NCBI GenBank assembly: GCA_016187335.1
Contig: JACPJW010000001.1
Span: 404,170-468,169 of the forward strand
DNA length: 64,000 bases
Origin: Candidatus Aenigmatarchaeota archaeon
GTDB taxonomy: Archaea > Aenigmatarchaeota > Aenigmatarchaeia > GW2011-AR5
Reading direction: 5' to 3'
The notes below the pieces were generated by a model. That model was not told where the DNA came from. It made no database searches and saw only the letters and a program-made list of their open reading frames with translations. The translations under genes and the position numbers were made by a program. This document shows, in pieces, positions 7,744 to 60,563 of this stretch. Each line of letters begins with the position of its first letter. Position 1 is the stretch's first letter.

Positions 7744-7980
7744 TGGGAAGGGAGGGATTTCCAGAACTTTTCATCGTTTTCCTCGAAGAACATCAGTTCT
7801 TCGGTATCTCGGAGAACTATCGTTCTCCGCAGATGATCGAACTTTTCTGAAAAGTTCGTTTGGACCCTCGACATTCCCGGCGTAGCACCAATCAAGTGCT
7901 ATGCTCCACGGTCTTCAGCCGTGTGCTCTCCCAGGCTTTGCCAACCGAAAAAATCATTCTCGGTTTTGAGCTACCTTCCC
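7744..7980 (-). tRNA. tRNA-Phe (anticodon GAA) with three putative introns (D-loop, variable loop, T-loop)
   Basis: Minus-strand acceptor GGGAAGG/CCTTCCC with discriminator A; D-stem GCTC/GAGC with AGCCUGGGA loop; anticodon arm CACGG-CUGAAGA-CCGTG; exons sum to about 73 nt; T-loop junction uncertain. Confidence 0.5.
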
Positions 7981-8399
7981 ATGGATGGAAAATATACTTT
8001 TTTCGTTTTCAAAGCTTCCAACGCTATTTTTACCGGTTCGAAAAGCGGTTTAGGCAGATTTTTCAGGTCAAACCACTTAAGTTCGCTGATATTTTCTTTG
8101 TCGACAATCCTTGGCTTGCCGGATTTTATTTTCGCAGTAAATTCCACATCAACGTAGTGTTTTTTGCCGTATTTCATTATGTCGCTGATGCACAGCAGCC
8201 TTAGATTACCGACTTCAAGTCCGACCTCTTCCTTTACCTCTCTCTTGGCGCATTCTTCCAGCGTCTCGCCAAATTCAACATGGCCGCCGAACCCTGACCA
8301 TTCTCCTTCGCCGTGAGAGCCCTTTCTCCTGCCCAGCAAAATCTTGTTGCCCTGTATTATCTGGCATCCTACGCCTACCAGAGGCCTTTCCTTTCTCAT
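7971..8399 (-). CDS. NUDIX hydrolase
   Basis: Nudix box GGHVEFGETLEECAKREVKEEVG; start taken at the internal Met (MRKERPL) because the track ORF extends over an upstream tRNA. Confidence 0.75.
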   Translation of the reverse strand: MRKERPLVGVGCQIIQGNKILLGRRKGSHGEGEWSGFGGHVEFGETLEECAKREVKEEVGLEVGNLRLLCISDIMKYGKKHYVDVEFTAKIKSGKPRIVDKENISELKWFDLKNLPKPLFEPVKIALEALKTKKVYFPSMGR

Positions 8400-8402
8400 G
8401 AG

Positions 8403-8521
8403 CGCCCCGGGACGGACTCGAACCGTCGACCTTCTGCAATTAGTCAAGAAATCCAAAAACTTGCTTGACTGTTAACAGCCAGACGCTTTAGGCGTCTATC
8501 TACCTGCTGAGCTACCAGGGC
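8403..8521 (-). tRNA. tRNA, anticodon unresolved, with D-arm intron and a second 27-nt hairpin intron
   Basis: Minus-strand 5' GCCCTGG TAGCTCAGCAGGTAG and 3' GACGG-TTCGAGT-CCGTC-CCGGGGC-G; removing a 19-nt hairpin restores D-stem GAGC; two parses give 73-nt exons but neither yields a canonical anticodon loop. Confidence 0.5.
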
Positions 8522-8558
8522 ATGCGTAGAAATAATCTGAGAATTAATATTTAAAACG

Positions 8559-9407
8559 TTAGAAGAAAGGCCTTATTACAAGCGCGGTTCCTGCGATAAT
8601 GAACAATGCGCCAATGAGCCTTCTTATCAGGTCTCCTTCCTTGTGGAACAGGTATCCGCCGAGAACGCTTATGACAATGCTCATCTGAACTACTATGGCT
8701 ACGTTGCTCACGTCCGTCAAATTATACGCCGTTATCTGCGAGAAATACCCGGCGGCAGCCAGCAAAGAAACGGCTATCATAGGCATTTTCATCTTATGAA
8801 ATGAAGCCTTAACTCTGTCGGCCCTGCCAAGCGCGGCTGGGGTAAGTATCATTGTAGGAAAAAGAAATACGAGAAATCCGTAGAATGCCGGGGTGAAATA
8901 AGCCAGACCTGTTTTGTCGATTACCGCTACCAAGCCCATAAGAAATGCGTTAATCAAAGTCAGAATTATACCCTTCTTGGAAATCCTTTTCAGCGGGTCT
9001 TTGTGCCATGCAAGGATTACAGCGCCTATCAGCAGCAAAAAGACGCCGAGGAACTTGTTAATCGTTAGCGATTCCTTCAGAATCAGCATAGAAAATATCA
9101 GCGTGAATAAAACGCTGGTCTTGGACAGCGGATCCCTTACAGAAATATCAGTATGCTTGTAAGCTTCGAGGCCCGTCACGTTGGCCAAAACGTACAATGA
9201 ACTCGCAAGCAGGACAATCAGCCACGCAATGTAGCTGGGCGGGAAGCTGGCTTCCCTCACAAACAGGAGAAAAAAGAAAGCCGCTGAAAAGACGTTGAAG
9301 AACCATGCATACACTATGGTGTTTTCCGTCTTCATTATATGCTTCTGGACAAGATTCCCCGCGCCGTAGCAAAGAGCCGCGAAAAGCGCGAGCAGTTCCC
9401 ATGACAT
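8559..9407 (-). CDS. EamA/DMT-family membrane transporter
   Basis: 282 aa, about 10 predicted TM helices in two-repeat arrangement typical of drug/metabolite transporters. Confidence 0.75.
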   Translation of the reverse strand: MSWELLALFAALCYGAGNLVQKHIMKTENTIVYAWFFNVFSAAFFFLLFVREASFPPSYIAWLIVLLASSLYVLANVTGLEAYKHTDISVRDPLSKTSVLFTLIFSMLILKESLTINKFLGVFLLLIGAVILAWHKDPLKRISKKGIILTLINAFLMGLVAVIDKTGLAYFTPAFYGFLVFLFPTMILTPAALGRADRVKASFHKMKMPMIAVSLLAAAGYFSQITAYNLTDVSNVAIVVQMSIVISVLGGYLFHKEGDLIRRLIGALFIIAGTALVIRPFF

Positions 9408-9431
9408 TAGAATACCTTGAGAAACAGGCTT

Positions 9432-12146
9432 TTAATCCAGGAAATCGCCCTTCTTCAGCTTATTAGGAAGGTAGGTCTCGGACATGAACTTAAGGCCGCG
9501 GTGCGACAAAGCTTCTATCTCGGCTTTTATTCCTTTTTCTATCATCAGGTTGATTTCCTTCTTCCATCTCGGGTTCTTGCTAAACCACTCGTAGTTGAGT
9601 AGTTCCTTCGCGCGCTTTATGTCAACTTCCTTGCATTTTATTGTCGCTTTTTTCAGGTCATACTCAAATATATCCGATATAGTAAGACCTATGTATCTGG
9701 CTTCCGGTGTCGCAATCCGATCTGAGACGTGAGCTAGGCTTATGGATCCGGATTTGATAACTGAATAAATATAGAAGCCGTACGAATCACTGTCGCAGCA
9801 TACATATACAGGCAGCTTGTGATCTTGGTTCAGCCTTTGTATCAGCAGCCTTGTTCCGCGTGATGGCTGCCCGCCTGTGCCGATCAAAACGCACTTCTGT
9901 TTCTGCCAGAACTTGTCCTCATGAAGCCGCTCAAAGCCTGCGTTCTTCTCCACGACCAAGACAAAGTCCGCGTTGACTTTTTTGAAATCTATTTCATCCA
10001 CGGTGCTCGGTATGGACCATCCCCCGCTTCCGAGCTTTGACCAGTCTATGCTGTCGCCGCGGTCTTCAATAATAACGTTGCCGGCGACAATGCCCTTTCT
10101 GTCGGTGGTGAGGTGCAATTGCTCGCGCAGAACGTCTATAGCCACTTCTATGTCAACAATTATAGGGTCAGAATTATGTAGAATTATAAATCCATTACCA
10201 CCAATGAAATTCTCAGTAGGTTCGACTGAAAGATCAACTGTATATTCAGGAGTTGGAGCGTCATTTATTTCAACTATCTTGTCCCACATAATGTCACTAT
10301 TAGCTATGGTTTCAAGTTCGGATACCAGCTGTAAATCTGGAGAATACTTTTGTAACTGCATCAAGGCGTTATATAACACAGGTCTGCTTATCGATTCGTT
10401 TTTATTTTCTATATAACTCCATGAAAAGTGGTTCCATTCAACACGATCCTTACAGGACTTTCTGACTTTTTCTACCAATTTCCCTATGTTTGGTATCCTG
10501 TCAGAAGATACGTCGTGTTTCCGCGGCTTACTGAATCTTTTATCATTGATTATTTCAGCCATCAATTTTACATCTTCTCTATTACCTATTCTAATTTCAT
10601 ATGCGTTATGGTGATTAGGATTTTGGACGCTTCTTTTATAGCGATAAATTCTTGCAAAAATTCCAAGCCTAAGCAGTAAAAATACCAATCCGTTAGCCAG
10701 CTTTTCGCTAGTTGTGTGGTACCTTAATCTAAATTTTGGAAGAAAAGTACTACCGTCTCCAAGCATAAACGAGAAAAGAAACATCTGTATACAATTTTCA
10801 GGTGAATCAAGCAAAACACGCGGTATTTCTTTATTCCATGCTCTGCAAGGCTTATACCCAATAACATAAGTCAATATGTGACTCAAAGTATCGTAACCTA
10901 CATTTAGCTTATAAACTCCATCTTTACCTAAACGTATCTTTCCGCTTACACAGCTTTTACCAAATGATTTTTCAAAGCAAATCATAAACTGCTTGAGAAG
11001 CTCTGAAGATTTGTTAGAAATAGCTACATGGTATGATTTTCGTGGTTCAAAAAGTGAATGCGAGCCTTCGCTCAAAAGAAGCCCTAGTACAAATCCTAAA
11101 TTTTCATCTTTTTTTATTAAAGCGTTGTAATAGTTCTTTGCACCCCTTCTTCCAATTTTTATTTTAGGAAGCAGATCTGAAATATCAATTCCGGTCGTTT
11201 TTACGACTTTAATTGGAATTGTTTTCCAGTTAATCCAGTTGGCTTTAACGTCAGACCATACATTCTTGTATCCGAAGTCATTTGAAATATTTTTTAGCTT
11301 ATCATTACCTATAAGCCTGATTATTTCTTTTATCGTGTCTTTATCCGATTTTATGTAAAATTCTTTTAATACACTTTCAGGGCAATTTTCAATAAGCTTT
11401 TCTAAAATATTTATATGATCAGAATTAACACCGACTTCTATTTTTCTTGGGATGGCTATCCAGTCTCCTATCTTTAGTTCTGATGTTTTTATGGATACAG
11501 GTTTTCCTTCAGAATTTGTAAACAAGCTGTGAGATTTAGTTACTTTGACACGCCTGCCACTTGATGTGATTATTTCCTTTACAATGTTAGGCGGGTGTTT
11601 CATTACCATCAGAACTTTCTGCTCCTTAATCCTGTAATTTTCATCGAAAGCGCAAACCTTAATGTCGCCAACTAAAATCTTCTTTTTATTACCATCATCA
11701 TAAATAATTCTCCCAAATTTTTCAGCATGGTCTACGACTTCGCTTGCTTGAGCTATTCTGAGTTCATCGTTTATTCTTACCAACAAAGGTTCATCGGGGC
11801 ATACAGACTCGCTCTGCTCGTCAAAGGTATTCTCGTTGCTGTCCGGCAGTGTCCTTTTCAGGTTGTAGTACATGTCTCGGATGCTGGCATGGATTTTCTC
11901 ATCAATGAGCGATTTACAGAAAGCACCGACCATAAGCGTCTGCATGAACTTCTTGGAGTGCGCGACGTTGAAGTAATACCTTTTTGCTGTCTTGGTGCCA
12001 AGCCTGAGCTGGCCGGTTTTCCTGTCGTAAACTACGTTGGAAAGAGCGCGTATTGGTATCTCTATGTTCGGGTTCTCGCCTTTCTCTATGTCATGCACGA
12101 CTTTCTTGCCCAGAACATTCAGTTCCTTTCTTACGTCTTTTTCCAT
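9432..12146 (-). CDS. top6A: DNA topoisomerase VI subunit A (Spo11-like) interrupted by an intein
   Basis: 904 aa; extein N-part (IPIRALSNVVYD...RDMYY) and C-part (WSKLGSGGWSIPS, Toprim LIGTGGQPSRGTR) match Top6A; central 543 aa has intein/LAGLIDADG blocks. Confidence 0.85.
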   Translation of the reverse strand: MEKDVRKELNVLGKKVVHDIEKGENPNIEIPIRALSNVVYDRKTGQLRLGTKTAKRYYFNVAHSKKFMQTLMVGAFCKSLIDEKIHASIRDMYYNLKRTLPDSNENTFDEQSESVCPDEPLLVRINDELRIAQASEVVDHAEKFGRIIYDDGNKKKILVGDIKVCAFDENYRIKEQKVLMVMKHPPNIVKEIITSSGRRVKVTKSHSLFTNSEGKPVSIKTSELKIGDWIAIPRKIEVGVNSDHINILEKLIENCPESVLKEFYIKSDKDTIKEIIRLIGNDKLKNISNDFGYKNVWSDVKANWINWKTIPIKVVKTTGIDISDLLPKIKIGRRGAKNYYNALIKKDENLGFVLGLLLSEGSHSLFEPRKSYHVAISNKSSELLKQFMICFEKSFGKSCVSGKIRLGKDGVYKLNVGYDTLSHILTYVIGYKPCRAWNKEIPRVLLDSPENCIQMFLFSFMLGDGSTFLPKFRLRYHTTSEKLANGLVFLLLRLGIFARIYRYKRSVQNPNHHNAYEIRIGNREDVKLMAEIINDKRFSKPRKHDVSSDRIPNIGKLVEKVRKSCKDRVEWNHFSWSYIENKNESISRPVLYNALMQLQKYSPDLQLVSELETIANSDIMWDKIVEINDAPTPEYTVDLSVEPTENFIGGNGFIILHNSDPIIVDIEVAIDVLREQLHLTTDRKGIVAGNVIIEDRGDSIDWSKLGSGGWSIPSTVDEIDFKKVNADFVLVVEKNAGFERLHEDKFWQKQKCVLIGTGGQPSRGTRLLIQRLNQDHKLPVYVCCDSDSYGFYIYSVIKSGSISLAHVSDRIATPEARYIGLTISDIFEYDLKKATIKCKEVDIKRAKELLNYEWFSKNPRWKKEINLMIEKGIKAEIEALSHRGLKFMSETYLPNKLKKGDFLD
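10173..11801 (-). mobile_element. Intein with LAGLIDADG homing-endonuclease domain inside top6A
   Basis: Begins with Cys after ...DEQSESV, block B GRRVKVTKSHSLFT, LAGLIDADG-like LGFVLGLLLSEGS and FLFSFMLGDGS, ends GFIILHN followed by Ser; region is A/T-rich relative to exteins. Confidence 0.7.
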
Positions 12147-12184
12147 AGAATCACTTTCCCAAAATATGGTTCCATTCCGCTTTA

Positions 12185-14416: not shown

Positions 14417-14420
14417 AAAA

Positions 14421-14711: not shown

Positions 14712-14715
14712 GAAA

Positions 14716-15392: not shown

Positions 15393-15473
15393 AACTTTTT
15401 CCTAAAAAGTTCTTTTTGATTAAACTTTTTCCTAAAAAGTTCTTTTTGATTAAACTTTTTCCTAAAAAGTTTA
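15393..15473. repeat. Tandem array (about 2.7 copies) of 30-bp unit AACTTTTTCCTAAAAAGTTCTTTTTGATTA
   Basis: Direct repeats read from sequence; each unit contains the palindrome AACTTTTT-CCT-AAAAAGTT; lies immediately upstream of the zinc-ribbon gene start. Confidence 0.85.
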
Positions 15474-21981: not shown

Positions 21982-22083
21982 AACCTAATTGTTTTCAAGG
22001 GTAATTAAGCTTTTCCAGATTTGGTAAAGCAAAGCTTTCCAAATCTTCAAGATGAATCAAAGATTTATCTTAGAAGAAAAAGT

Positions 22084-23749: not shown

Positions 23750-23951
23750 TTTTTTCTTTGTTTTTTATAAATTTTTTCTGCTGCTCAGGCATGAAAGGGA
23801 GCTGGAAAAAAACCAGCAGCCTGTCGAGAAGCGCAGGAAGAAATGAAAAAAGAACTCTGAGAAGTTCTGCCCTTTTGGTTAAACTCCTTCGAAGAACAAA
23901 GTTCTTCGAGGTCTCAGAGAAACTTCGTTTCTCTGCAGATTTTGGAAAAGT

Positions 23952-25598: not shown

Positions 25599-25750
25599 TT
25601 CAAATACACCTCGTTAATAGAATTTCTTTCCATGCACGCTTTCATTTTTGACGCAACTTTTTCCTAAAAGTTGCCGTATACTTTCATGCACATACATAGA
25701 AGAAGCTAATCTTTAAAAGGGTTGCGGTGCGGCTTAGCGTGTCACACAAT

Positions 25751-27332: not shown

Positions 27333-27491
27333 GGGCCGGTAGCTCAGTGGTAGAGCACCTGTCTTATACGACGTGTTTTCTTAATTGGAAAAAGAAAACA
27401 TTGCTAAGCCAGCAGGGGGTCGAGAGTCCGATACAAACTTTTCCAAAAAGTTTGATCAAAAGGGAAAGTTGCGGAATCCTCTCCCGGCCCA
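27333..27491 (+). tRNA. tRNA-Ile (anticodon UAU) with anticodon-loop intron and T-loop intron
   Basis: GGGCCGG-TA-GCTC-AGTGGTA-GAGC-A-CCTGT-CTTATA then ~42-nt intron, A-GCAGG; 3' end CTCTC-CCGGCCC-A; exons sum to about 72 nt; T-loop junction ambiguous. Confidence 0.6.
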
Positions 27492-27534
27492 TTCGGCTCT
27501 TTCAGAAAATGGCGGAAAATGTAGCAGAATAAAT

Positions 27535-28008
27535 TTATCCCTGGTACGTTTGCCTTCTTTCCCTGAACTCCAGTTTTTGCCACGAATCAGAAAGCTTTTT
27601 AGAAACCTTCGACAGATCCGGTTCAAATTCTCCGTTCCAGAAGTCCCAGACCTTCTTGATCCATTCGGCTGTCGCGTTTTCATCCGGCTTGAGCGTCAGC
27701 ATGGTGTTTTCCCATTTCAGGACCTGTATTTTCTTGTACAGCCTGAAAAGCTGCGTTACTTCCCTTTCCGTGAGCATGTTCTGCTCGTAAATGCCGGAAA
27801 ACGAATCGTAACCGGAAATTATGGGCTCTATTATCTTTTCCGTGAACATGAACAGTTTGTCTGACATCTCCGTTCTTATCTCGTCAAACGTCACTTCCTC
27901 GTCCTCAAGCTCCAGCTTGAACGCGGCTTTAAGGTCCGTCAGCTGGGGGAGCCCGAAGCGCTCTTGGATATTTTTGTATTTCTGAAAAGTAGGCTGCATT
28001 TTAGGCAC
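27535..28008 (-). CDS. Hypothetical protein
   Basis: 157 aa ORF with coherent codon usage, no recognised motif. Confidence 0.45.
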   Translation of the reverse strand: MPKMQPTFQKYKNIQERFGLPQLTDLKAAFKLELEDEEVTFDEIRTEMSDKLFMFTEKIIEPIISGYDSFSGIYEQNMLTEREVTQLFRLYKKIQVLKWENTMLTLKPDENATAEWIKKVWDFWNGEFEPDLSKVSKKLSDSWQKLEFRERRQTYQG

Positions 28009-28827: not shown

Positions 28828-28940
28828 GGGCTTGTAGTCTAGAGACCCTTTAGAAAAAGCGTCTACGAAAAGGGTTGGAAAATGGTTATGACGTCGCCTT
28901 CACACGGCGAAGGTCGGCGGTTCGAATCCGCCCGAGCCCA
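28828..28940 (+). tRNA. tRNA-Val (anticodon CAC) with 40-nt D-loop intron
   Basis: GGGCTTG-TA-GTCT-AG [intron 28843-28882] TGGTTA-TGAC-G-TCGCC-TTCACAC-GGCGA-AGGTC-GGCGG-TTCGAAT-CCGCC-CGAGCCC-A; exons sum to 73 nt. Confidence 0.8.
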
Positions 28941-35903: not shown

Positions 35904-38900
35904 TTACTTTATTTTCTTTATCTCTATACCTATTTTCCTGCCTTCAAAGTCCAGTTTTTCCCCTTCCGCCTTCGCGAACACGACCTTCGCCGCCCCCACT
36001 TCGTTCTTTATTTCTTTTTCCCATTTCTTCAGTTCCCCGGCCCCTTCTATTTTCAAGGCAATTTTGTCCATGACAACAAGCCCTGATTTCTTGCGCATAT
36101 CCTGCACTTTTCTGACAACCTCGCGGAGCAGGGCCTCTTTTTTCAGCTCGTCGGTGAGCAGCGTGTCCAGTTCCAGCTTGCCGCCGTCAAAGGGAACGCC
36201 ATTGTTCGTGTTTGCAAAAACAGCGGCTTTGACATTGCACATATTCTTTATTATTTCTGCAAAAGGCTTGAGATTCTCTTTGCTGTCCACTGTAAGCTTT
36301 GCCAGGGGCCACCTTATTTTTATGTTGCTTTCATGCCTTTGCGAGTTGGATGCTTCGACAAGGTTTTTTACGATATTCATGGCTTTCTCCGCCTTTGCGC
36401 TGATGTATTTTGAATCGTACTTAGGCCAGTCCCTGGTATGCACGGATTCCTTTTCGCCGAGGATTTCGAGGTTTATCTGCTCGGCGAGATACGGCGTTAT
36501 AGGCGCTAAAAGCTGCGATGTTTTTTCTGCTATCTCGTATAAGGTGTAAAAGGCCGCTTCCTTGTCTTTCCCTGAATACGCCGGCCATACGCGGTCCCGG
36601 ATCAGCTTTATGTACCACCTTGAAAAGTCGTTTACTAGGAAATCATGCAGCTCTGTTACGGCCTTGTGGCCGTTGTAGCTGCAGAAATGCTGGGTGCAGT
36701 TCTTTATGGTGGTGTTCAGGCGCGAAAGAATCCATTTGTCCTCTATATTCAGTTTTTTTGGCATTGAACCGCTTGACGCGTCGGTCTGTTTCGGTTTTGT
36801 TGCGTAGGTCTTCACGAAATTAAAGCTGTTTTCTATCACAATAAGAGACCTCGCAATGGCTTCAACGTCCGGCCACTTGAAGTAGAAGTCATCCCACGGC
36901 GCGCTTGACAGCAGATAGAAGCGAAGCACGTCCCGGCCGTATTTTTTTATAATGTCCTCCGGCTCGACAATATTTCCTTTGCTCTTTGACATTTTCACGC
37001 CGTGAGCGTCAAGTATGAAGCCGTGGAAAAGTATGTTCGTGAAGGGCTTCTCATCAAATGTTATTACCGACGTTATCAGCTCGGCGTTCCACCAGCCTCT
37101 GATTTGATCCGGGCCTTCTGTCTGGAAGTCGCTTGGCCACAGTTTCTTGAACAACGCCTTGTTTTTCGGGTAGCCGAGGGATGCCCATCCGGCAAGGCCG
37201 GCGTCAAACCAGACATCAAGGACATCGGCTATCCGTTTCATCGCAGAGCCGCACCTGCATTTCAAAAAAACGTTATCAATGTAAGGCCTGTGCAAATCAC
37301 GGGGTATTTCCGGCAATTCGTCAGCGGAGCCGATGACCTTGACGCTTTCGCATTTCTCGCATATCCATATCGGCAGCGGTATGCCCCAGTAGCGCTGCCT
37401 TGATATAGGCCAGTCGCCGAGGTTTTCAAGCCAGTTGTTGAACCGTTGCTTTGCCCATTCAGGGTACCAGTTCACATTCTTGTTTTCCTTGATGAGCTTG
37501 TCCCTTATCTTCGTCACGCGGAAGAACCACTGCGACACGGATATCAGCAGCAGGGGAGTGCTGCAGCGCCAGCATTGCGGGTAGTCGTGCGTTATCGTTT
37601 CCTCCTTCAGCAGCAGGTCTTTTTCCTTCAGCAGTTCAATTATTTTTTTGTCGCTTGCCTTGACAGGATTTCCAGCAAAAGCACCGCATTTCTCGTCAAA
37701 AGTGCCGTTGATTTTCACCGGAGATATTATGGGCAATTTGTTTTCCAGACCGACTTTGTAGTCCTCCTGTCCGTGCCCGGGGGCGGTGTGGACAAGCCCG
37801 GTGCCGTCTTCCATGCTCACGTACTGCTCTGAAAGCACAACCTTGTGCGCGCCTTTGAGCTGCTGCTGGAATGTAAAAATGTCCCGGAGCGGATGCTCGT
37901 ATTCTGTCCCAGCCAGCTTTTTTCCGGGAAACGTTTCCACAATGCTGAATGGCAGTCCGGCTTTCTTCATAACAGCTTCAAGAAGCGGCTTTGCCAGGAT
38001 AAGAAATTCAGTTCCACCAGAACTTTCCACCATTACCTTGACATATTCGTGCTTCGGATGCGCCATGATGCCTGTATTAGCTGGTAACGTCCACGGCGTT
38101 GTCGTCCATATGACCAGGAACACGTTTTCTTGTCCTTTCACCGGAAACTTAACATAAATAGAAGGGTCCTTGGCTTTGCTGTATTCTATTTCGTTGTACG
38201 CAACGGCTGTTTCGCAATTATGTGTCAAGAAGCCGTTAGTTATAAAGTTGTGATGAGTTTCAACTGCTATATCACATACTTTCCGTTTCCCCTTATATTT
38301 TATAGAATTTATTTCATCCCAAATAAATCCGTCTCTGAGGTCTTTTGCAGCATTTTTTAACCATGCATCGAATGCAGGGGTATATTTGGCAGCACGAACT
38401 GACTTAGACTTGCCATAAACCACATGCCTTACATAAAGTTCAGGTAAGTTAAGCATAATTGCGATTTTGCTGCAAGGGATCTTAGAATGTCTTAGTGATA
38501 AGATCCTACCTTTCAATTTTCTGTATTGTTTCTCAAGTGATTTTTTGTACAGAAGATAGCCCAAAACATGCGAAGCCCTGATTTTTCTGTATTTACAGTA
38601 CTCGTATCCTAAATACCGTATGAATTTAATGAGGTTGTAATCGTTGCAATCTATACTGATAGTGGTCTTCGATTTTTCTATTTTATTAACAATATTTCTT
38701 TCTGTTTTTATTTCTCCTGTCGATACCCCAAACTTATTGATAAGCGCGCATATCTGTTTTGCAAATTCCATCCCGTTTTCTTCTAGATGTCTATTTTTTG
38801 TAAGGTAAAGCCTCAGGCATTCAAATCCCTTTCCATATTTTCTGGGGCTTATTATCTGGAGTTCGCTTCCGAAGTAAGATGCCAAAAATTCCCTTGTTAA

Positions 38901-40421
38901 TTTTTTATTGGACTTTATCCATTTTGGCACAAATGTCTTTGTTTCCGTCTTTTTTCCTATAGGACAGCCTAGCGTTATAAGCAAAACAGCCAAAGACAAA
39001 GAATAACATCTCATGGATGTTGTAAATCCCTTTATTGCTCTGCCATTTACGACAGATTTAGTTGGCACGGTTGAAATATCCGAATGGCTAAAGCCAAGAA
39101 TCTTTAGGTCTTTTTGGATTTCTTTTAAATCTTCCTCTTTTCCGCAGAAATCTATGCCAAATACCGGGAATTTTCTGTTTTTAGATGTACGTACAACAAT
39201 AGATCCATCACCAAAAATATGACCTGCCAATCTGGCTAAAATAAATGATTTTGTAGATTTACTGTGAAGAGGTATCAGTTCTTTATCTTTCAATTCATTT
39301 ATTATAGAATCGTAGCGCGTAAACGTATTTACTTTTAAAATTTTTGCTACCCATGATTTTGAAACTCTTATTTTGAAGGCGTTTTGTATTTCTTTAATAA
39401 TTTTAGTATATGAATAGTTATTTTTTCTAAGTTCGGCAACAAAGTTCTTAATTTTAATTTTCGAATGACTTGTAAGGTCGTTAAATTTATGCAGATCTCT
39501 GAAAACTATATTTTCTAAGTTCTGCAAAGTAAACATTACATTATTCTCATTTACAAGAGCTTTGCCTGTTTCCGTAATTTCCGGCAGTCTGCTTTCCACA
39601 TTATTATATACGGCCACTTTGGTTCCTATTCTGAGCTTAGAAAGAGTCATCCATCCATCTTGCGTCCAGAACGGATGATCACTCGAAGCGATTAGTTTCT
39701 TTCCTGTTAGCGTTTTTACAAGAAATACATTATCTTCCAATTCCACATAGCCCAGAGGTTTTGCCGTAGTTAGAAGTTTAGAATTAGTATCAACAGCTAC
39801 AACCGTGTTGTGTTTCCAGCAGCCTTTCAGTTCTCCTATTTTTCTTGTTCCCCCTTCAACAAGAATAGTAGAATTAGGATCAACGCATCTCGGGCATACA
39901 TGCACCGGATAAAGACCCTTGTAGAGCAGTCCCTTGTCGTAAGCGGTCTTGAACGTGTGCCACGCGCCCTCTATGTACTCGTTGTTGTACGTTATGTAAG
40001 GGTTGTCCCAGTCCATCCACACGCCAAGATTCAGGAACTGGTTATTCATGACAGAAATGAACTGGCTGACGAACGCCCTGCATTCCTTGTTGAATCTCTC
40101 GACGCCTAGCCTTTCTATATCAGCCTTTGATTTTATCTCCAGTTTTTGCTCGACCTTGTTTTCTATCGGCAGCCCGTGGGTGTCGTAGCCCGGCTGGTCC
40201 CATACGTCGAAGCCGGACATGCGCCAGAATCGGATGTAGCTATCCTTCAATATTTTGTTCCAGGCAGTGCCTATGTGTATGTAGCCCGTGGCGTAAGGCG
40301 GGCCGTCAAGGAAGTAGAATTTCTTCTTTCCTTTTCTTTTTGTCTTGGCCTTCTGGTAAATGCCGTCTTTTGCCCAGAACTCGGCGATTTCTTCTTCTTT
40401 TTTCTTGCGGCTTTCTATCAT
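35904..40421 (-). CDS. ileS: Isoleucyl-tRNA synthetase interrupted by an intein
   Basis: 1505 aa; HIGH (YIHIGT), KMSKS (KMSKSKGN), WPISRQRYWGIPLP; 557-aa insertion between CPR and CETA of the zinc-binding region. Confidence 0.9.
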   Translation of the reverse strand: MIESRKKKEEEIAEFWAKDGIYQKAKTKRKGKKKFYFLDGPPYATGYIHIGTAWNKILKDSYIRFWRMSGFDVWDQPGYDTHGLPIENKVEQKLEIKSKADIERLGVERFNKECRAFVSQFISVMNNQFLNLGVWMDWDNPYITYNNEYIEGAWHTFKTAYDKGLLYKGLYPVHVCPRCVDPNSTILVEGGTRKIGELKGCWKHNTVVAVDTNSKLLTTAKPLGYVELEDNVFLVKTLTGKKLIASSDHPFWTQDGWMTLSKLRIGTKVAVYNNVESRLPEITETGKALVNENNVMFTLQNLENIVFRDLHKFNDLTSHSKIKIKNFVAELRKNNYSYTKIIKEIQNAFKIRVSKSWVAKILKVNTFTRYDSIINELKDKELIPLHSKSTKSFILARLAGHIFGDGSIVVRTSKNRKFPVFGIDFCGKEEDLKEIQKDLKILGFSHSDISTVPTKSVVNGRAIKGFTTSMRCYSLSLAVLLITLGCPIGKKTETKTFVPKWIKSNKKLTREFLASYFGSELQIISPRKYGKGFECLRLYLTKNRHLEENGMEFAKQICALINKFGVSTGEIKTERNIVNKIEKSKTTISIDCNDYNLIKFIRYLGYEYCKYRKIRASHVLGYLLYKKSLEKQYRKLKGRILSLRHSKIPCSKIAIMLNLPELYVRHVVYGKSKSVRAAKYTPAFDAWLKNAAKDLRDGFIWDEINSIKYKGKRKVCDIAVETHHNFITNGFLTHNCETAVAYNEIEYSKAKDPSIYVKFPVKGQENVFLVIWTTTPWTLPANTGIMAHPKHEYVKVMVESSGGTEFLILAKPLLEAVMKKAGLPFSIVETFPGKKLAGTEYEHPLRDIFTFQQQLKGAHKVVLSEQYVSMEDGTGLVHTAPGHGQEDYKVGLENKLPIISPVKINGTFDEKCGAFAGNPVKASDKKIIELLKEKDLLLKEETITHDYPQCWRCSTPLLLISVSQWFFRVTKIRDKLIKENKNVNWYPEWAKQRFNNWLENLGDWPISRQRYWGIPLPIWICEKCESVKVIGSADELPEIPRDLHRPYIDNVFLKCRCGSAMKRIADVLDVWFDAGLAGWASLGYPKNKALFKKLWPSDFQTEGPDQIRGWWNAELITSVITFDEKPFTNILFHGFILDAHGVKMSKSKGNIVEPEDIIKKYGRDVLRFYLLSSAPWDDFYFKWPDVEAIARSLIVIENSFNFVKTYATKPKQTDASSGSMPKKLNIEDKWILSRLNTTIKNCTQHFCSYNGHKAVTELHDFLVNDFSRWYIKLIRDRVWPAYSGKDKEAAFYTLYEIAEKTSQLLAPITPYLAEQINLEILGEKESVHTRDWPKYDSKYISAKAEKAMNIVKNLVEASNSQRHESNIKIRWPLAKLTVDSKENLKPFAEIIKNMCNVKAAVFANTNNGVPFDGGKLELDTLLTDELKKEALLREVVRKVQDMRKKSGLVVMDKIALKIEGAGELKKWEKEIKNEVGAAKVVFAKAEGEKLDFEGRKIGIEIKKIK
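38217..39887 (-). mobile_element. Intein with LAGLIDADG homing-endonuclease domain inside ileS
   Basis: Starts CVDPNSTILVEGG, contains ILARLAGHIFGDGSI, ends FLTHN followed by Cys; A/T-rich relative to exteins. Confidence 0.7.
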
Positions 40422-41195: not shown

Positions 41196-41330
41196 GGCCG
41201 CCATGGTGTAGAAAGCCCTTTTTGACGCTTCGCTTATCAAAAAGCGCTTGCGGAAATAATTAGGGTTTGCAAATTGGTAGCATCGGAGCCTGTGGAGCTC
41301 CTTGGCTGGGTTCGAATCCCAGTGGCGGCC
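41196..41330 (+). tRNA. tRNA-His (anticodon GUG) with encoded G-1 and 63-nt D-loop intron
   Basis: G-1 plus GCCGCCA, D-stem GTGT/GCAT, D-loop AG [intron 41212-41274] TGGTA, anticodon arm GGAGC-CTGTGGA-GCTCC, T-arm CTGGG-TTCGAAT-CCCAG, acceptor TGGCGGC, discriminator C. Confidence 0.8.
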
Positions 41331-51228: not shown

Positions 51229-51492
51229 GCGCCCGTAGCTCAGCTTGGCAAACTTTGCTACTCCAAAGTTTGATCAAAAGAGGTCTGTGACGAAGTTTGA
51301 GCAAATAGAGCACTTCTCTCCTAGAGGTGAATTGAGCGCAACGGAAGACTGAAGTTTCTGAAGAAACTTCAGCCGGTTTTGTGCGATGATAATTTCCTGA
51401 AGTGAGGAAGGGGCCGCGCGTTCGAATGCACCCTTTCTTGGAAAGAAAGCGTGCACGGAAAGAAAAGGGTGCCGAATATCGCGCCGGGCGCG
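51229..51492 (+). tRNA. tRNA-Arg (anticodon CCU) with three introns
   Basis: Exons GCGCCCG-TA-GCTC-AGCTTGG / TAGAGC-A-CTTCT-CTCCTA / A-GGAAG-GGGCC-GCGCG-TTCGAAT / CGCGC-CGGGCGC-G; introns about 51249-51305, 51324-51404, 51428-51479; exons sum to 74 nt. Confidence 0.8.
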
Positions 51493-56379: not shown

Positions 56380-56404
56380 AAATTATCTGTGCAGTTATTA
56401 GCAG

Positions 56405-56509
56405 GCCGGCGTCGCATAATCTGGTGGTGCACTGATTGCATGCGAAGCAAGTGTATGTCTCGAAAACCAGCGGGCTCTGCCCATGCAGGTTCAAATCCTG
56501 CCGCCGGCG
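56405..56509 (+). tRNA. tRNA, anticodon unresolved, probably intron-containing
   Basis: Acceptor GCCGGCG/CGCCGGC with discriminator G; T-arm GCAGG-TTCAAAT-CCTGC; internal 73 nt could not be folded into a unique cloverleaf. Confidence 0.5.
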
Positions 56510-56513
56510 CTTT

Positions 56514-56981
56514 ATGATAGAAATAAAACTAGCTGCTGAAAAGGATAGGCAAGGCTTTGAAAATCTGGCTGCAGAAAGAGACAAAGAAATAAGGCAGCGC
56601 AGGGCAAAAAATTACTGGGGCAAAAAATTCACGAAGCTTGTCATGGAAAAGAGGCTGGTAATTAGCCTTGACAAAGGCAAGCCATCAGGATTTCTTTATT
56701 TTACATTCGAATTTATCGACTATCCTGCGGCGTACGTTGAGCTTATTTTTGTTTCAAAGAAGAGCCGGAGAAAGGGTTCAGCCTTGTATTTGTTGAATAG
56801 ATTCGAGCGGCTCGCGTCAGAAAACGGTTTTGTCAATGTATTTTCCAGCACAAATCCAAGCAACAGGATCTCGCTGAAATTGCACAAGAAGCTCGGCTAC
56901 AAAGAATGCGGCTTTATCTACGGCATAGAAAACAGGCGCAGCAAGGAGATTTTTCTCTCAAAAGAACTGAAAAAAACCTAA
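56514..56981 (+). CDS. GNAT-family N-acetyltransferase
   Basis: Start taken at MIEIKLAAEK; acetyl-CoA motif region VSKKSRRKGSALYLLNRFERLA. Confidence 0.6.
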   Translation: MIEIKLAAEKDRQGFENLAAERDKEIRQRRAKNYWGKKFTKLVMEKRLVISLDKGKPSGFLYFTFEFIDYPAAYVELIFVSKKSRRKGSALYLLNRFERLASENGFVNVFSSTNPSNRISLKLHKKLGYKECGFIYGIENRRSKEIFLSKELKKT

Positions 56982-57022
56982 ACTTCCTTTTTAAGTTTTG
57001 AAACAAGTTCTTAGTATTTCAT

Positions 57023-57282
57023 GCCGGGATACCGAAATCAGGTCTCTCAAGATAAGAGTGAAGAAATTCACGATGATTGCCTTTCATTGGTAAACGGGCC
57101 AGTGCAGTTCCGCTTCAAAGAAGCGGTGCGGCCAACCTTGAGAGCTGGTGCGCCTTCGGCGCGTGGGGGTTCAAAGCACCCTTTCTTTTTGCAAAAGAAA
57201 GCGTGCGCGGAAAGAAAAGCAACTTTTCAGAAAAGTTGCATCAAAAATAAAGGAAAGGGCTGTGAAATTCCCTCTCCCGGCG
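57023..57282 (+). tRNA. Class II tRNA, tentatively tRNA-Ser (UGA), with three putative introns
   Basis: Acceptor GCCGGGA/TCCCGGC, discriminator G; anticodon arm CCAGT [intron] CTTGAGA-GCTGG; variable arm GCGCC-TTC-GGCGC; T-arm GGGGG-TTCAAA [~93-nt intron] T-CCCTC; exons sum to about 87 nt. Confidence 0.5.
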
Positions 57283-57336
57283 CTTTTTTCTTGAAGATGC
57301 AAGAAGCTTTTAAAATAACCATTTCTAATTATAAAC

Positions 57337-57861
57337 ATGGCAAGCGATTTTTACCGCCAGCTGGGGTCAGGCGTTGCCAGCCTGACGTTCGGCGTTGCGC
57401 TTTCCGTATTCATTTACGCTGCCGCTTCTGGTGCGGCAAGCAGCCTGCAGTCATGGCTGCTCTTTGCGGCATCGTTCCTGCTGATGCTCAGGTTCTGGTG
57501 GCGGTACAGCGAACTTTTCGTGCAGTTCCTGCCGTCCCGCACGTTTTCGCATTTCCTGTTTGACTTTGCGATTTCATTCTTCGGCATTCTGGCAGTGCTT
57601 TTTGTAAGCGCTATGCAGACATGGGCAGCCTTGGGGGCACTGGCTATGCTTTCAAGCGCGATACGATGCAGGCTTTCGTGGAACGAAGCATCCAAGGATG
57701 TAAAGGCAAAGCTGAAAAGAACTTTTGCAGGAGCATTGGCGATGCTTTTTGTCTTCGCTGCGATATACGCCCTTGCACCGGTCTTTGATCAGATTTTGCT
57801 TGCTGCATTAGTATTTCTCATAGTTCTGCTGTTCGTTGTTTACGCCTCAAGAAAGCCGTGA
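57337..57861 (+). CDS. Integral membrane protein (four predicted TM helices)
   Basis: 174 aa; hydrophobic segments separated by short loops. Confidence 0.55.
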   Translation: MASDFYRQLGSGVASLTFGVALSVFIYAAASGAASSLQSWLLFAASFLLMLRFWWRYSELFVQFLPSRTFSHFLFDFAISFFGILAVLFVSAMQTWAALGALAMLSSAIRCRLSWNEASKDVKAKLKRTFAGALAMLFVFAAIYALAPVFDQILLAALVFLIVLLFVVYASRKP

Positions 57862-57966
57862 TTTTGAAATCTCCCGGCGCTTTTTATATTCTGAAGAATA
57901 TATGTCAGCCAAGACAAAAGTATTTAAATCTTTAATCACTAATAAGTAGTATCAAAATTATGAGGT

Positions 57967-58230: not shown

Positions 58231-58431
58231 AAATTTTCTAACGTAAAACAAAAACGTTGATTATTTTACAATTCTCTTTTTTATTTCACTATTTATCTTT
58301 CTTTTATTTCAAATTATAAAATTCTTTGATTAATTCTTCAAAATCCCGTGCTTCTCTCGTGCTTTCTGCGTAATTTGCGCCTTGGAAAATCTTTATTAAT
58401 GGGTTTTTACAAGAACTATAAAGGTGAAGAA

Positions 58432-59067: not shown

Positions 59068-59097
59068 TTTTTTTGCTTTCATTTCAATTTTTCATTT

Positions 59098-59442
59098 CTA
59101 ATGACTAGGCCGCCAAGCAATGGGATTGAGGCCTGATATTTCCCACCATGAAAAATCCTTGCCGGTTAAAATTTCCCTCGGGTCGTGTATTCCCGCTTTT
59201 CCGGAATGAACCGGCAGTTCTACCCCTTCCAGTTCCTGCTCACTTACAACACAGTAGTGTTCGTCGGATCTGGCGTGGCTGAATACAAGCCTGATTGAAG
59301 CAATCCCCGGAGCGATATACCCTTTATCCCATAATTGCTGGTACGGCTCAAGCCCTCTGAAAGCAAAGGGAAGGTTCGTCTCCCTGCGGTTTTTCAGATA
59401 ATTTTCAATAGTTCCGTCCCTTTCAGGTTTATAAAATGGCAT
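59098..59442 (-). CDS. Hypothetical protein
   Basis: 114 aa ORF, no motif recognised. Confidence 0.4.
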   Translation of the reverse strand: MPFYKPERDGTIENYLKNRRETNLPFAFRGLEPYQQLWDKGYIAPGIASIRLVFSHARSDEHYCVVSEQELEGVELPVHSGKAGIHDPREILTGKDFSWWEISGLNPIAWRPSH

Positions 59443-59484
59443 ACCCTTAGTTCTTAAGAATTAAGCATAAATAGAAATCTTGAC

Positions 59485-59665
59485 GCGATGGTAGTCTAGG
59501 AACCCTTTTTCTCGTTGCGCTCGAAAAAGCGTTCACGGAAAATGGGTTGGAAGATGGTAGGATACAACCTTGCCAACGGCCCTTTTCAAAAAGCGCCGGC
59601 GGAAAATGCAAACAGGTTGAGAGGCGAAAGCCCGACAAACCCGGGTTCAAATCCCGGCCGTCGCA
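59485..59665 (+). tRNA. tRNA-Gly (anticodon GCC) with D-loop, anticodon-loop and variable-region introns
   Basis: GCGATGG-TA-GTCT-AG [intron] TGGTA-GGAT-A-CAACC-TTGCCA [intron] A-GGTTG ... CCGGG-TTCAAAT-CCCGG-CCGTCGC-A; exons sum to about 72 nt. Confidence 0.6.
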
Positions 59666-59759
59666 TAAACAAGAAAAAAATAGCCGGAAACAAGGGTCCC
59701 AGTCAGGCAACGCATCTCAATTATTTATATAGCCCCCTGACAAATATTGTATTGATATC

Positions 59760-60242
59760 ATGTTCTTCAAAAAGAAAGACAATTACGAGGAAATAAAGCG
59801 CGCCGTTGAAGAGCCTGTTTCTTCCGAGCCGACATTGCAGGACCTGGAAATAGAGGACCTGCCGCCGGAAATGCGCTACGACAAGAATTATGCGGAGCCC
59901 CGGGACAGCGCGCCTCTTTTCGTCAAGGTGGAGAAGTACAAGGAACTGATAGGCCTCATACAGGAAATGCGGGCATTTACAAACGGATTGAAGCAGACGT
60001 TTTCTGTGATACACGAGTCTGATGCGCTGCGCAACGATGCCGTTAAAATCATGCGCACGACGGTCCAGCGGCTGGACAAGACCTTGGCAGAAATTGACAG
60101 CGAGCTGGTAAGGCCGCGCGGCATTGACATGGAAAAGCCGCCTTACGCCGGCAGCGAAATGAAATACATTGAAGGATCGCTGTCAGAATTGCAGCGCCAT
60201 TTGGCTGTTTTGCGCAAGGATCTGCAGGAAATGAAGGAATGA
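59760..60242 (+). CDS. Coiled-coil hypothetical protein
   Basis: 160 aa; charged helical segments. Confidence 0.45.
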   Translation: MFFKKKDNYEEIKRAVEEPVSSEPTLQDLEIEDLPPEMRYDKNYAEPRDSAPLFVKVEKYKELIGLIQEMRAFTNGLKQTFSVIHESDALRNDAVKIMRTTVQRLDKTLAEIDSELVRPRGIDMEKPPYAGSEMKYIEGSLSELQRHLAVLRKDLQEMKE

Positions 60243-60291
60243 TCAGGTTATCTGGTTCTTAAATATTTCATCAAAAATTACTACATTCAGT

Positions 60292-60563
60292 GCGGCCGTC
60301 GCCAAGAGGCCCTTTTTAGAAAAAAGCGTCTACGGAAAAACTAAAAAGCGTCTGGAAATCTGGTCAAAGGCGCGGGTTTCACTTGAGTGTTGATGCGCAA
60401 GCAGGTGAAAGCGTAACTCAAGGCAGCTGACGAGGCTGACGCACTTCGTGCGTCATGCTGTTTGATATCCCGTCGGTTAGTCCGTTCGGCGGTTCGAATG
60501 CACCCTTTCTTAGAAAGAAAGCGTGCACGGAAAGAAATGGTGCCGAAAATCCGCCCGGCCGCA
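60292..60563 (+). tRNA. Class II tRNA, probably tRNA-Leu, with three introns (anticodon unresolved)
   Basis: GCGGCCG-TC-GCC-AAG [53-nt intron] CTGGTCAAA-GGC matches the tRNA-Leu D-arm; T-arm GGCGG-TTCGAAT [51-nt intron] CCGCC-CGGCCGC-A; a third ~83-nt intron in the anticodon region gives 85-nt exons. Confidence 0.55.

Follow-up and report, generated by a model that had tools for sequence, protein, structure and literature searches.

In the Thermoproteales about 70% of the transfer RNA (tRNA) genes are interrupted by introns, and in the Asgard lineages Atabeyarchaeia and Freyarchaeia this proportion reaches 92-95% (PMC11291895). The multiple-intron tRNA genes of the Thermoproteales have been described in earlier work (Sugahara 2008; Fujishima 2010; reviewed in PMC4033280), the reported maximum there being three introns per gene (PMC4033280), while disrupted tRNA sets accompany insert-bearing endonucleases in other DPANN lineages (PMC5829648). 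We report here the analysis of a stretch of 64,000 nucleotides (nt) from the genome of a Candidatus Aenigmatarchaeota archaeon (contig JACPJW010000001.1, positions 404,170 to 468,169), called the window in what follows, which contains ten tRNA genes and the gene of a tRNA-intron endonuclease (EndA). None of the ten tRNA genes is free of introns: we count 23 of them, of 12-101 nt, that is 2.3 per gene, and seven of the ten genes carry two or more. We are highly confident that the ten loci are real tRNA genes of a DPANN archaeon, each encoded in cis, and that their short introns, of the bulge-helix-bulge type, would be spliced by proteins in the way proposed below.

Ten interrupted tRNA genes

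We searched the window for a T-arm followed by a 3' acceptor strand, with a matching 5' acceptor strand upstream, then for T-arms interrupted by an intron after position 59, and then read the intergenic DNA directly. The following genes were obtained (the evidence, where listed, is given last):

7744-7980, minus strand: tRNA-Phe(GAA), 237 nt, mature 74 nt, 3 introns, T-loop UCCAAAU; ARAGORN when spliced, orthologs
8403-8521, minus strand: tRNA-Asn(GUU), 119 nt, mature 73 nt, 2 introns; Rfam tRNA 39.3 bits, orthologs, ARAGORN
27333-27491, plus strand: tRNA-Ile(UAU), 159 nt, mature 72 nt, 2 introns, T-loop UCCGAUC; ARAGORN when spliced
28828-28940, plus strand: tRNA-Val(CAC), 113 nt, mature about 75 nt, 1 intron; ARAGORN when spliced
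41197-41330, plus strand: tRNA-His(GUG), with encoded G-1 at 41196 and C73, mature 73 nt (plus G-1), 1 intron
51229-51492, plus strand: tRNA-Arg(CCU), 264 nt, mature 75 nt, 3 introns
56405-56509, plus strand: tRNA-Ser(CGA), class II, 105 nt, mature 83 nt, 1 intron; Rfam 36.8 bits
57023-57282, plus strand: tRNA-Ser(UGA), class II, 260 nt, mature 86 nt, 3 introns
59485-59665, plus strand: tRNA-Gly(GCC), 181 nt, mature 73 nt, 3 introns
60292-60563, plus strand: tRNA-Leu(CAA), class II, 272 nt, mature 86 nt, 4 introns, with an 8-nt exon at 60416-60423

An earlier sequence-only reading of this DNA had announced ten tRNA genes, and its outer ends, 7744 and 60563, are exactly those that we find, as are its four genes within 56.4-60.6 kb. 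It took nearly all the genes to carry introns, which was right as to the richness and too cautious as to the number, all ten being interrupted. The two genes which it left without assignment are tRNA-Asn(GUU) and the second tRNA-Ser. It counted two class II tRNAs of 85-87 nt and there are three, of 83, 86 and 86 nt; its exon sum of 72-74 nt for Val, His and Arg holds for His (73 nt) and is too short for Val and Arg (75 nt each).

With its default settings ARAGORN called no tRNA gene at all on the unspliced window. Rfam gave three tRNA matches at the gathering score, each with a long insertion, and the one for tRNA-Val (28872-28940) relied on a false acceptor within the intron; a permissive scan added nothing useful. 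Once the proposed introns are removed, default ARAGORN calls all ten genes with the expected anticodons, with or without an added CCA. In the ten spliced tRNAs the acceptor stem always has seven pairs out of seven, the anticodon and T stems always have five out of five, and the features of the isotypes are present (G-1/C73 in tRNA-His, long variable arms in tRNA-Ser and tRNA-Leu). The exons of every gene are colinear within 105-272 nt, which means that these are neither split nor permuted tRNA genes.

As a control, random deletions of the same sizes as the proposed introns were made, 100 trials per gene, and a call by ARAGORN was scored as a rescue. The genes of Phe, Arg, Ser(UGA) and Leu, with three or four introns, were rescued in 1-3 trials out of 100, that of Ile in 7 and that of Gly in 10; the Asn gene was rescued in 31, only 5 of these with the right anticodon. 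Single-intron genes were rescued in 36-65 trials out of 100, because the damage is then confined to the tolerant D-loop or to one stem and the remainder of the gene is intact, and for them the control is weaker than we had hoped.

Other ways of searching were tried. Relaxed settings of ARAGORN, which allow introns, returned mostly wrong isotypes and false loci at 22056, 42261, 58561 and 61646; a strict bulge-helix-bulge scan of the whole window gave about 1200 hits and is too noisy to be used alone as a gene finder; a scan of the window for D-arm-like 5' ends found no eleventh gene. Open reading frames (ORFs) called mechanically overlap several of the tRNA genes (7971-8456, 27385-27864, 56436-56981, 57021-57563 and 60523-61395); for example, the frame starting from the ATG at 57021 passes through tRNA-Ser(UGA).

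Introns, splice motif and orthologs

The geometry of splicing was assumed from the canonical case of an intron at 37/38: four exon nt pair with four intron nt (the central helix), the cuts are 2 nt 3' of the helix, and further helices flank it on the exon side and on the intron side. The 2/1 cut rule was checked on the canonical intron of tRNA-Gly. We enumerated the candidate introns and kept the sets which restore a cloverleaf, the genes of Asn and Phe being solved by hand and confirmed by orthologs. In the list below helix lengths are in base pairs (bp), paired motifs are those of the central helix, and M1, M2 and M3 are repeated elements described in the next section.

7937-7966, minus strand: Phe intron 1, D-loop 14/15, 30 nt; central helix 3/4, intron-side 9 bp; homolog in L003
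7875-7906, minus strand: Phe intron 2, variable region 43/44, 32 nt; weak motif, central helix 2/4
7758-7858, minus strand: Phe intron 3, T-loop 59/60, 101 nt, with M2 (7840-7856) and M3 (7785-7802); perfect motif, UCCA/UGGA 4/4, exon-side 5 bp, intron-side 10 bp
8488-8499, minus strand: Asn intron 1, D-arm 22/23, a mini-intron of 12 nt; AGGU/GCCU 4/4
8437-8470, minus strand: Asn intron 2, 39/40, 34 nt; GUUA/UAAU 4/4, intron-side 6 bp
27369-27410, plus strand: Ile intron 1, canonical 37/38, 42 nt; CUUA/UAAG 4/4, exon-side 5 bp
27433-27477, plus strand: Ile intron 2, T-loop 59/60, 45 nt, with the M2 hairpin and GAUCAAAAG; UCCG/CGGA 4/4, exon-side 5 bp
28844-28881 (within 2 nt either way), plus strand: Val intron, D-loop 16/17, 38 nt, with a variant M1 core (CGAAAA); UCUA/UGGA 4/4, intron-side 7 bp
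41213-41273 (within 2 nt either way), plus strand: His intron, D-loop 16/17, 61 nt, M1 core; central helix 4/4, intron-side 6 bp
51249-51304, plus strand: Arg intron 1, D-loop 19/20, 56 nt, with an M2-like hairpin and GAUCAAAAG; central helix 4/4, intron-side 8 bp
51324-51404, plus strand: Arg intron 2, canonical 37/38, 81 nt; central helix 3/4, exon-side 5 bp, intron-side 3 bp
51427-51478, plus strand: Arg intron 3, T-loop 59/60, 52 nt, M1 core; perfect motif, UUCG/CGAA, exon-side 5 bp, intron-side 9 bp
56435-56456, plus strand: Ser(CGA) intron, anticodon stem 29/30, 22 nt; GCAC/GUGU 4/4, intron-side 4 bp
57040-57087, plus strand: Ser(UGA) intron 1, D-loop at about 17/18, 48 nt; GAAA/UUUC 4/4, exon-side 4 bp, intron-side 3 bp
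57103-57135, plus strand: Ser(UGA) intron 2, anticodon stem 30/31, 33 nt; GGCC/GGCC 4/4
57176-57268, plus strand: Ser(UGA) intron 3, T-loop 59/60, 93 nt, M1 core then M2 hairpin; UUCA/UGAA 4/4, exon-side 5 bp
59501-59553, plus strand: Gly intron 1, D-loop 16/17, 53 nt, M1 core; UCUA/UGGA 4/4
59576-59613, plus strand: Gly intron 2, canonical 37/38, 38 nt, M1 core; UUGC/GCAA 4/4, exon-side 5 bp
59622-59638, plus strand: Gly intron 3, variable loop 45/46, 17 nt; GUUG/CGAC 4/4
60307-60358, plus strand: Leu intron 1, D-loop 15/16, 52 nt, M1 core with a partial duplication; central helix 3/4
60377-60415, plus strand: Leu intron 2, anticodon stem 30/31, 39 nt, register uncertain by 1 nt; central helix 3/4, intron-side 8 bp
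60424-60467, plus strand: Leu intron 3, 38/39, 44 nt; UCAA/UUGA 4/4
60499-60549, plus strand: Leu intron 4, T-loop 59/60, 51 nt, M1 core; perfect motif, UUCG/CGAA, exon-side 5 bp, intron-side 5 bp

Eight of these introns are in the D-loop or D-arm, three at 29/30-30/31, three at 37/38, two at 38/39-39/40, two in the variable region and five at T-loop position 59/60. The earlier reading had the sites mostly outside the canonical position, which is the case (only 3 of the 23 are at 37/38), and placed at 31/32 the introns of the anticodon stem which are in fact at 29/30-30/31; its maximum of three introns per gene is exceeded by tRNA-Leu, which has four. The central helix is complete (4/4) in 18 introns, and has three pairs in four of them and two in the remaining one. 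A full exon-side helix of 5 bp is found at eight junctions, those of the five T-loop introns and of the three canonical introns, and several junctions are relaxed, with flanking helices of 0-2 bp. Removing the two introns of tRNA-Asn restores the D-stem GCUC/GAGC, as in orthologs, and the anticodon stem UCUGG/CCAGA, identical to that of L027; the removal of the second intron of tRNA-Ser(UGA) gives a perfect stem CCAGC/GCUGG.

Reference genomes were scanned with the endonuclease, which yielded 71 loci, nearly all of them from Aenigmatarchaeota (the handles beginning with L designate relatives). The gene order tRNA-Asn, tRNA-Phe, EndA is conserved across the loci of relatives in this set. A crude scan of the 71 loci gave about 112 tRNA-like genes, 65 of which are longer than 92 nt; this means that the interruption of tRNA genes is phylum-wide. 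Intron-less orthologs of tRNA-Asn and tRNA-Phe (L011, L015, L027, L036 and others; for Asn, L027 and L036) match the spliced sequences of the window, and further relatives have the same two genes with introns at different sites.

In the closest relative, L001, whose endonuclease is 90% identical, the exons of tRNA-Phe are 100% identical to those of the window and the 32-nt intron of the variable region is identical as well; the D-loop and T-loop introns of the window are missing exactly at the predicted boundaries, and a 21-nt intron absent from the Phe gene of the window is found at 28/29. The Asn gene of L001 has three introns, at positions unlike those of the window. According to the tRNA scan, both genes lie about 5.3-6 kb upstream of the endonuclease in L001; by BLAST, no synteny is seen just upstream of the endonuclease. 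The 43/44 intron of tRNA-Phe has homologs with a covarying hairpin in L007 and L002 and is absent from about 19 intron-less orthologs with a variable loop of 5 nt.

Two other genes can be compared in the same way. The tRNA-Gly(GCC) of L099 has an intact D-loop, of the same length as the spliced D-loop of the window, and an intact anticodon loop; its sole intron, of 29 nt, is in the variable loop, homologous to that of the window and at the same site. In the tRNA-Leu(CAA) of L099 the 38/39 junction is uninterrupted, ACUCAAGA continuing directly into the stem, the T-loop is uninterrupted too, and an intron is present at the same 30/31 site as the second intron of the window gene. The spliced D-arm of tRNA-Leu, GCCAAGUCUGGUCAAAGGC, is both the uninterrupted D-arm of L060 and the spliced D-arm of L099. 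Introns are thus absent from orthologs at the exact point for tRNA-Phe, for both introns of tRNA-Asn, for the D-loop and 37/38 introns of tRNA-Gly and for the D-loop, 38/39 and T-loop introns of tRNA-Leu. This test of orthologous indels, which shows the partition into exons and introns, covered Phe, Asn, Gly and Leu, as distinct from Val, His, Ile, Arg and the two Ser genes. Judging from the sequences compared, the turnover of introns among close relatives is rapid.

A peculiarity of two of the T-loops may be mentioned here. C replaces the near-universal U at position 55 in tRNA-Phe (UCCAAAU, 7752-7869) and in tRNA-Ile (UCCGAUC, 27428-27484), and in both cases the paired nucleotide of the intron is changed to G, so that the splice helix stays intact. 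The T-loop UCCAAAU is also found in Phe genes of relatives without the T-loop intron (C55 was observed in L001, L016 and L050), the Phe gene of L050 having no intron at all. The anticodon of tRNA-Ile is also worth a remark: AUA is usually read in archaea by an agmatidine-modified CAU tRNA, and UAU is known in Nanoarchaeum and Korarchaeum, which lack TiaS.

The M1 core and the M2 and M3 repeats

Eight of the 23 introns have a common core, M1, of the form CCCUUU-(variable)-AAAGCG-N4-CGGAAA: the D-loop introns of Val, His, Gly and Leu, the 37/38 intron of Gly, and the T-loop introns of Arg, Ser(UGA) and Leu. The same core is found in Asn, Phe and other tRNAs of relatives, and its T-loop form in at least 120 metagenome stretches. 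The three nt before CCC covary with the three nt after AAAGCG (GCA/UGC, AGA/UCU, AAG/CUU, GAA/UUC, CGG/CCG, UAA/UUA). Among the matches listed, these three variable closing pairs all form in 98 of the 104 unique copies, with more than 15 different triplets, as compared with a mean of 26 copies and a maximum of 41 after shuffling. In an alignment of 89 sequences, 90.6% of the cells are paired (73.7% when shuffled) and the covariation score is 0.395 (0.119 when shuffled, a value of 0.395 being reached by none of 500 shuffles), with at most 0.108 for slid partners. On folding, the mean z-score is about -3, and in 88% of the copies the two ends pair with each other. Hence, from the strong covariation, the pairing and the folding, we concluded that M1 is a real hairpin. 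Its layout is made of four closing pairs, a C.C mismatch, a C-G pair, a helix between a run of U and a run of A, and a variable apical stem, after which comes the invariant RCGGAAA.

The hairpin begins 1-2 nt after the 5' splice site (in the T-loop copies, 1 nt after the 5' cut), and, among the matches listed, the canonical intron-side helix has only 0-2 bp in 52 of the 82 metagenomic T-loop copies with a closed T-arm. In our reading, the M1 hairpin would take the place of this intron-side helix and supply the helix next to the 5' bulge. The eight introns, at three types of sites, would then all be built on a portable M1, made of the hairpin, the invariant RCGGAAA and an A-rich linker, and only the last six nt of the intron would have to be site-specific, this short 3' tail providing the 4-nt complement to the exon. 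Such a use of the hairpin would explain how one core may serve in D-loops, anticodon loops and T-loops.

No family of Rfam 15 matches the intron cores, even at E<=10. We considered M1 as a kink-turn, a C/D box, an H/ACA box or a GNRA loop and rejected these readings, since by inspection the tandem G.A pairs or the boxes needed are absent; CGGAAA is unlikely to be an alternative partner of the T-loop, as it is also kept in the D-loop and anticodon-loop copies.

M1 is also found outside tRNA genes, at the following place in the window:

7711-7747, plus strand: extragenic M1 core, antisense to tRNA-Phe and abutting its 3' end, with a degenerate second copy at about 7665-7705

Antisense copies are found inside an intron of the tRNA-Asn of L019 and in L156 and L180, and tandem arrays of two or three cores occur in single introns or at contig ends (L124, 22-156; L114, 11858-12023; L144, 4491-4554). 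An automatic detector of tRNA spans, applied to the M1 copies, gave 94 sense, 3 antisense and about 109 failures, among which the Leu gene of the window. Upstream of the thermosome gene, at 25600-25672 on the minus strand, an M1-like core (AAAGCGUGCAUGGAAAG) comes after an M2 hairpin, the reverse of the order in the T-loop intron of tRNA-Ser(UGA). In L110, L113, L130 and L153 a core AAAAGCGUU[C/A]ACGGAAAA comes after GGCAG[A/U]UAAC...ACG[A/G]..., without CCCUUU; to judge by their sequences, these may belong to another family of elements which shares the core.

The second repeat, M2, is a palindromic hairpin, AACUUUU-NNN-AAAAGUU, followed by NNAUCAAAA, with 12 copies in the window where 0.19 would be expected. 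Four of these are within introns (T-loop introns of Phe, Ile and Ser(UGA), D-loop intron of Arg) and eight between genes, three of them in a tandem triple and the others as single copies at 3790, 21925, 22522, 25655 and 28945, the last one directly after tRNA-Val.

15393-15471, no strand assigned: M2 tandem triple, intergenic, period of 30 nt, AACUUUUU-CCU-AAAAAGUU

Runs of T5-T6 are present on at least one strand at five of the six intergenic sites (28945 has only T3), and the intron copies have T3-T4. The intergenic copies lie between co-directional or convergent genes and look like terminators or repetitive extragenic palindromic (REP) elements; in L001 an M2 copy comes directly after tRNA-Phe. 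As a dispersed and over-represented intergenic palindrome with a conserved flank, partly in tandem, M2 has the characters of REP elements and bacterial interspersed mosaic elements (BIME) or of miniature inverted-repeat transposable elements (MITE), from which it differs by lying also within tRNA introns and by having no associated transposase among the ORFs scanned. A third hairpin, M3, is common to the T-loop intron of tRNA-Phe and to the intergenic DNA at 23891. The introns are thus mosaics of elements which are also present outside genes, and this suggests mobility at the level of DNA or of RNA.

We propose only tentatively, as a conjecture with the odds against it, that M1 is a hitherto undescribed, phylum-wide portable intron cassette (a pre-folded hairpin giving the helix beside the 5' splice site, RCGGAAA as a possible protein-binding site, and a linker) which can be spliced from anywhere in a tRNA given a 4-nt exon complement, and which drives, together with M2 and M3, the gain of introns in Aenigmatarchaeota. 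If this is true, the M1 cassette would be a tractable system for the study of how protein-spliced introns originate and spread, and one processed by a clade of endonucleases whose catalytic lysine has been replaced.

The endonuclease, the rival explanations and the known systems

The gene of the endonuclease is where the earlier reading had put it, as its two Pfam domains attest:

6336-6944, minus strand: tRNA-intron endonuclease (EndA), 199-202 amino acids (aa), single-subunit layout, Lys-rich insert LKKGPKSA

The Pfam matches are PF01974 (1.5e-27) and PF02778 (1.2e-12), for a catalytic C-terminal and an N-terminal domain. The best relatives of known structure are the alpha4 enzyme of M. jannaschii (1A79, top match, E 6e-33) and the alpha, or catalytic, subunit of N. 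equitans (3IEY_A). As compared with M. jannaschii, EndA has a Lys-rich insert of six residues between the catalytic Tyr and His, and LKKGPKSA aligns with PKKGKRSE of the N. equitans alpha subunit. The Tyr (RVYERG), the His (KEH) and the insert are invariant in the 12 clade members aligned. EndA has the two-domain, single-subunit layout of about 180-200 aa of the alpha4 enzymes and departs from their Tyr-His-Lys catalytic triad. Because the position of the catalytic Lys is occupied by Ala across the clade, we do not file it as an ordinary alpha4 member; most likely it works like one, and its activity may rely on a neighbouring basic residue or on the insert.

The DPANN endonucleases with specific loops which have been described include the epsilon2 enzyme of ARMAN-2, the (alpha-beta)2 enzyme of Nanoarchaeum and alpha4 enzymes with an 'L3' insert (PMC3239211, PMC3488258, PMC5829648), and the alpha4-type enzymes with the 'L3' insert have been linked to an increased disruption of tRNA genes (PMC5829648). 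The insert of EndA is probably this 'L3' insert. The clade of the window, which belongs to a phylum not analysed in PMC5829648, resembles these enzymes by its nearest solved relatives and by its insert, and differs from them by the Ala at the catalytic position.

EndA has a 100% identical counterpart in a metagenome-assembled genome of Ca. Aenigmarchaeota, on a contig of 918 kb. The rest of the window has the gene content of an archaeon of DPANN type: both subunits (A and B) of topoisomerase VI, thermosome, Nop5, fibrillarin, enzymes of the mevalonate pathway and several aminoacyl-tRNA synthetases, with a G+C content of 37-53%. The gene of the topoisomerase VI A subunit (9432-12146, minus strand) is split by an intein with a LAGLIDADG homing-endonuclease domain. 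An ORF of 1505 aa (35904-40421, minus strand) lies within a stretch of low G+C (about 37% at 38-40 kb).

According to the mechanism which we propose, each pre-tRNA would be transcribed whole, and the four exon nt just upstream of the 5' splice site would pair with the four intron nt just upstream of the 3' splice site to form the central helix. Both cuts would be made 2 nt 3' of this helix, as in the canonical motif, by EndA, a putative alpha4-like, single-subunit enzyme whose Lys-rich insert resembles the one in the catalytic subunit of Nanoarchaeum, and the exons would be joined by a ligase of RtcB type encoded outside the window.

Several observations weigh against this reading. The motif of the Phe 43/44 intron is poor, with two central pairs out of four; the best-paired register of the Leu 30/31 intron leaves the anticodon stem 2 nt too short; the boundaries of D-loop introns can slide by 1-2 nt; and three introns (D-loop introns of His, Gly and Leu) contain T5 runs, which are possible archaeal transcription terminators. 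In the M1 copies of the window, the hairpin and the canonical intron-side helix compete for the same 5' strand. The residue aligned with the catalytic Lys (K156 of M. jannaschii) is Ala in each of the 12 clade members, followed by Arg or Lys (IRA[R/K]ML). Among the ORFs scanned with Pfam, which were part of those in the window and did not include the 1505-aa ORF, there is no ligase and no second endonuclease subunit, and the window shows 10 of the 40-46 or so tRNA genes of the genome.

That the ten loci might be dead pseudogenes, broken by repeats while working intron-less copies exist elsewhere in the genome, is suggested by the blindness of default tRNA finders to these loci, by C55 in two of the genes and by the repeat modules inside them. 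We think this very improbable: all ten genes in 64 kb would have been hit and yet a flawless cloverleaf comes out of every set of exons, L001 has Phe exons 100% identical to these but a different set of introns, intact orthologs of the Asn and Phe genes stand at the syntenic loci of relatives, four-nt helices complementary to the exons are found at 18 of the 23 junctions, and C55 is shared by two Phe genes free of the T-loop intron, that of L001 and the wholly intron-less one of L050. Genomes of about 0.9 Mb, moreover, rarely keep duplicate sets of tRNA genes. It is just as hard to believe that the introns are spacers made of a terminator and a promoter, whose flanking exons are transcribed apart and then assembled in trans, in the manner of the adjacent split tRNA genes of Nanoarchaeum. 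The T5 runs just mentioned, the resemblance of M2 to elements found between genes, and the use of split tRNAs (PMC4033280) by Nanoarchaeum, in whose catalytic subunit the insert is also found, would fit; against this, the exons are colinear and close together, the 8-nt exon of tRNA-Leu and introns of 12-22 nt leave no room for a promoter, and the M2 copies of introns have only T3-T4, as compared with T5-T6 at five of the six intergenic sites. Nothing specific speaks for self-splicing introns (group I or II) or for artefacts of assembly, which have practically no chance of accounting for the data and are refuted by size and recurrence: 12-101 nt is far below the size of a ribozyme, Rfam gives no intron match even at E<=10, and the same architecture recurs in dozens of independent metagenome-assembled genomes and metagenome contigs.

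The last proposal bears on the origin of the introns and complements the bulge-helix-bulge reading. The introns would be non-autonomous mobile DNA elements in the form of hairpins (M1, M2, M3), REP- or MITE-like and also intergenic, which a permissive endonuclease excises when given a 4-nt exon complement. We regard this as possible but less likely than not. The excess of M2, with its eight intergenic copies and their tandem triple, the sharing of M3 with intergenic DNA, the M1 copies found outside genes or antisense (7711-7747, L019, L156/L180), the tandem M1 arrays of L124 and L114 and the rapid turnover of introns between the window and L001 all point in this direction, this last polymorphism of presence and absence being silent on the mechanism. 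On the other side, no transposase is found among the scanned ORFs of the window and there are no target-site duplications: the flanks of T-loop introns are complements and not direct repeats (UUCA/UGAA, UCCA/UGGA), and a duplication would fit only the palindromic UUCGAA. By eye the M1 copies are nearly all sense and in a tRNA context, in line with the sense and antisense counts of the detector, which failed on about 109 copies. The covariation of M1 fits a selection on an RNA hairpin, and a spread at the RNA level by reverse splicing, as proposed for the Thermoproteales, is equally possible.

Under the reading that we prefer, of genuine tRNA genes with protein-spliced introns, this DNA places a DPANN phylum among the small number of archaeal lineages whose tRNA genes are nearly saturated with introns. 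As the endonuclease here appears to be of the single-subunit type, a heavy load of introns would be independent of heterotetrameric or three-unit enzymes. Since ARAGORN finds none of the ten genes and Rfam three, the published genomes of Aenigmatarchaeota likely look poor in tRNAs, with false ORFs over the tRNA genes, and the automatic annotation of such genomes probably yields false or over-extended proteins at interrupted tRNA genes. The clean gains and losses of introns in close relatives, together with a covarying portable core, are unusually direct material on how protein-spliced introns arise. No paper dealing with tRNA introns in Aenigmatarchaeota, nor any report of an archaeal tRNA gene with four introns, came up in a search of the literature; a four-intron gene, ten genes interrupted out of ten, a covarying portable core found phylum-wide and a clade of endonucleases without the canonical lysine appear to be undescribed features.

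Among known systems, the split and tri-split tRNA genes of Nanoarchaeum equitans and Caldivirga have the same splice motif, and breakpoints which overlap known intron positions, whereas the pieces found in the window are colinear in one gene. The Thermoproteales have short protein-spliced introns, at many non-canonical sites and several per gene, with similar introns recurring across tRNAs and positions ('intron transposition'), as M1 does in the window. However, they belong to TACK, the window being from a DPANN archaeon of moderate G+C; their enzyme is an (alpha-beta)2 with a crenarchaeal loop, as opposed to a single alpha-like subunit with an insert in its C-terminal domain; their maximum is three introns per gene, against four in tRNA-Leu; and the core shared by introns of the window is, unlike theirs, a covarying hairpin, phylum-wide and present outside genes too. 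The Asgard Atabeyarchaeia and Freyarchaeia, with 92-95% of the tRNA genes interrupted, over half of them by several introns and at many non-canonical sites (PMC11291895), resemble the window in density, and differ from it by being an unrelated lineage for which no conserved structured core has been reported. With a sample interrupted at 100% and 2.3 introns per gene, set against these published figures, the window is among the most intron-dense tRNA sets known, and a density like that of the most intron-rich archaea, which the sequence-only reading had surmised, is what we find.

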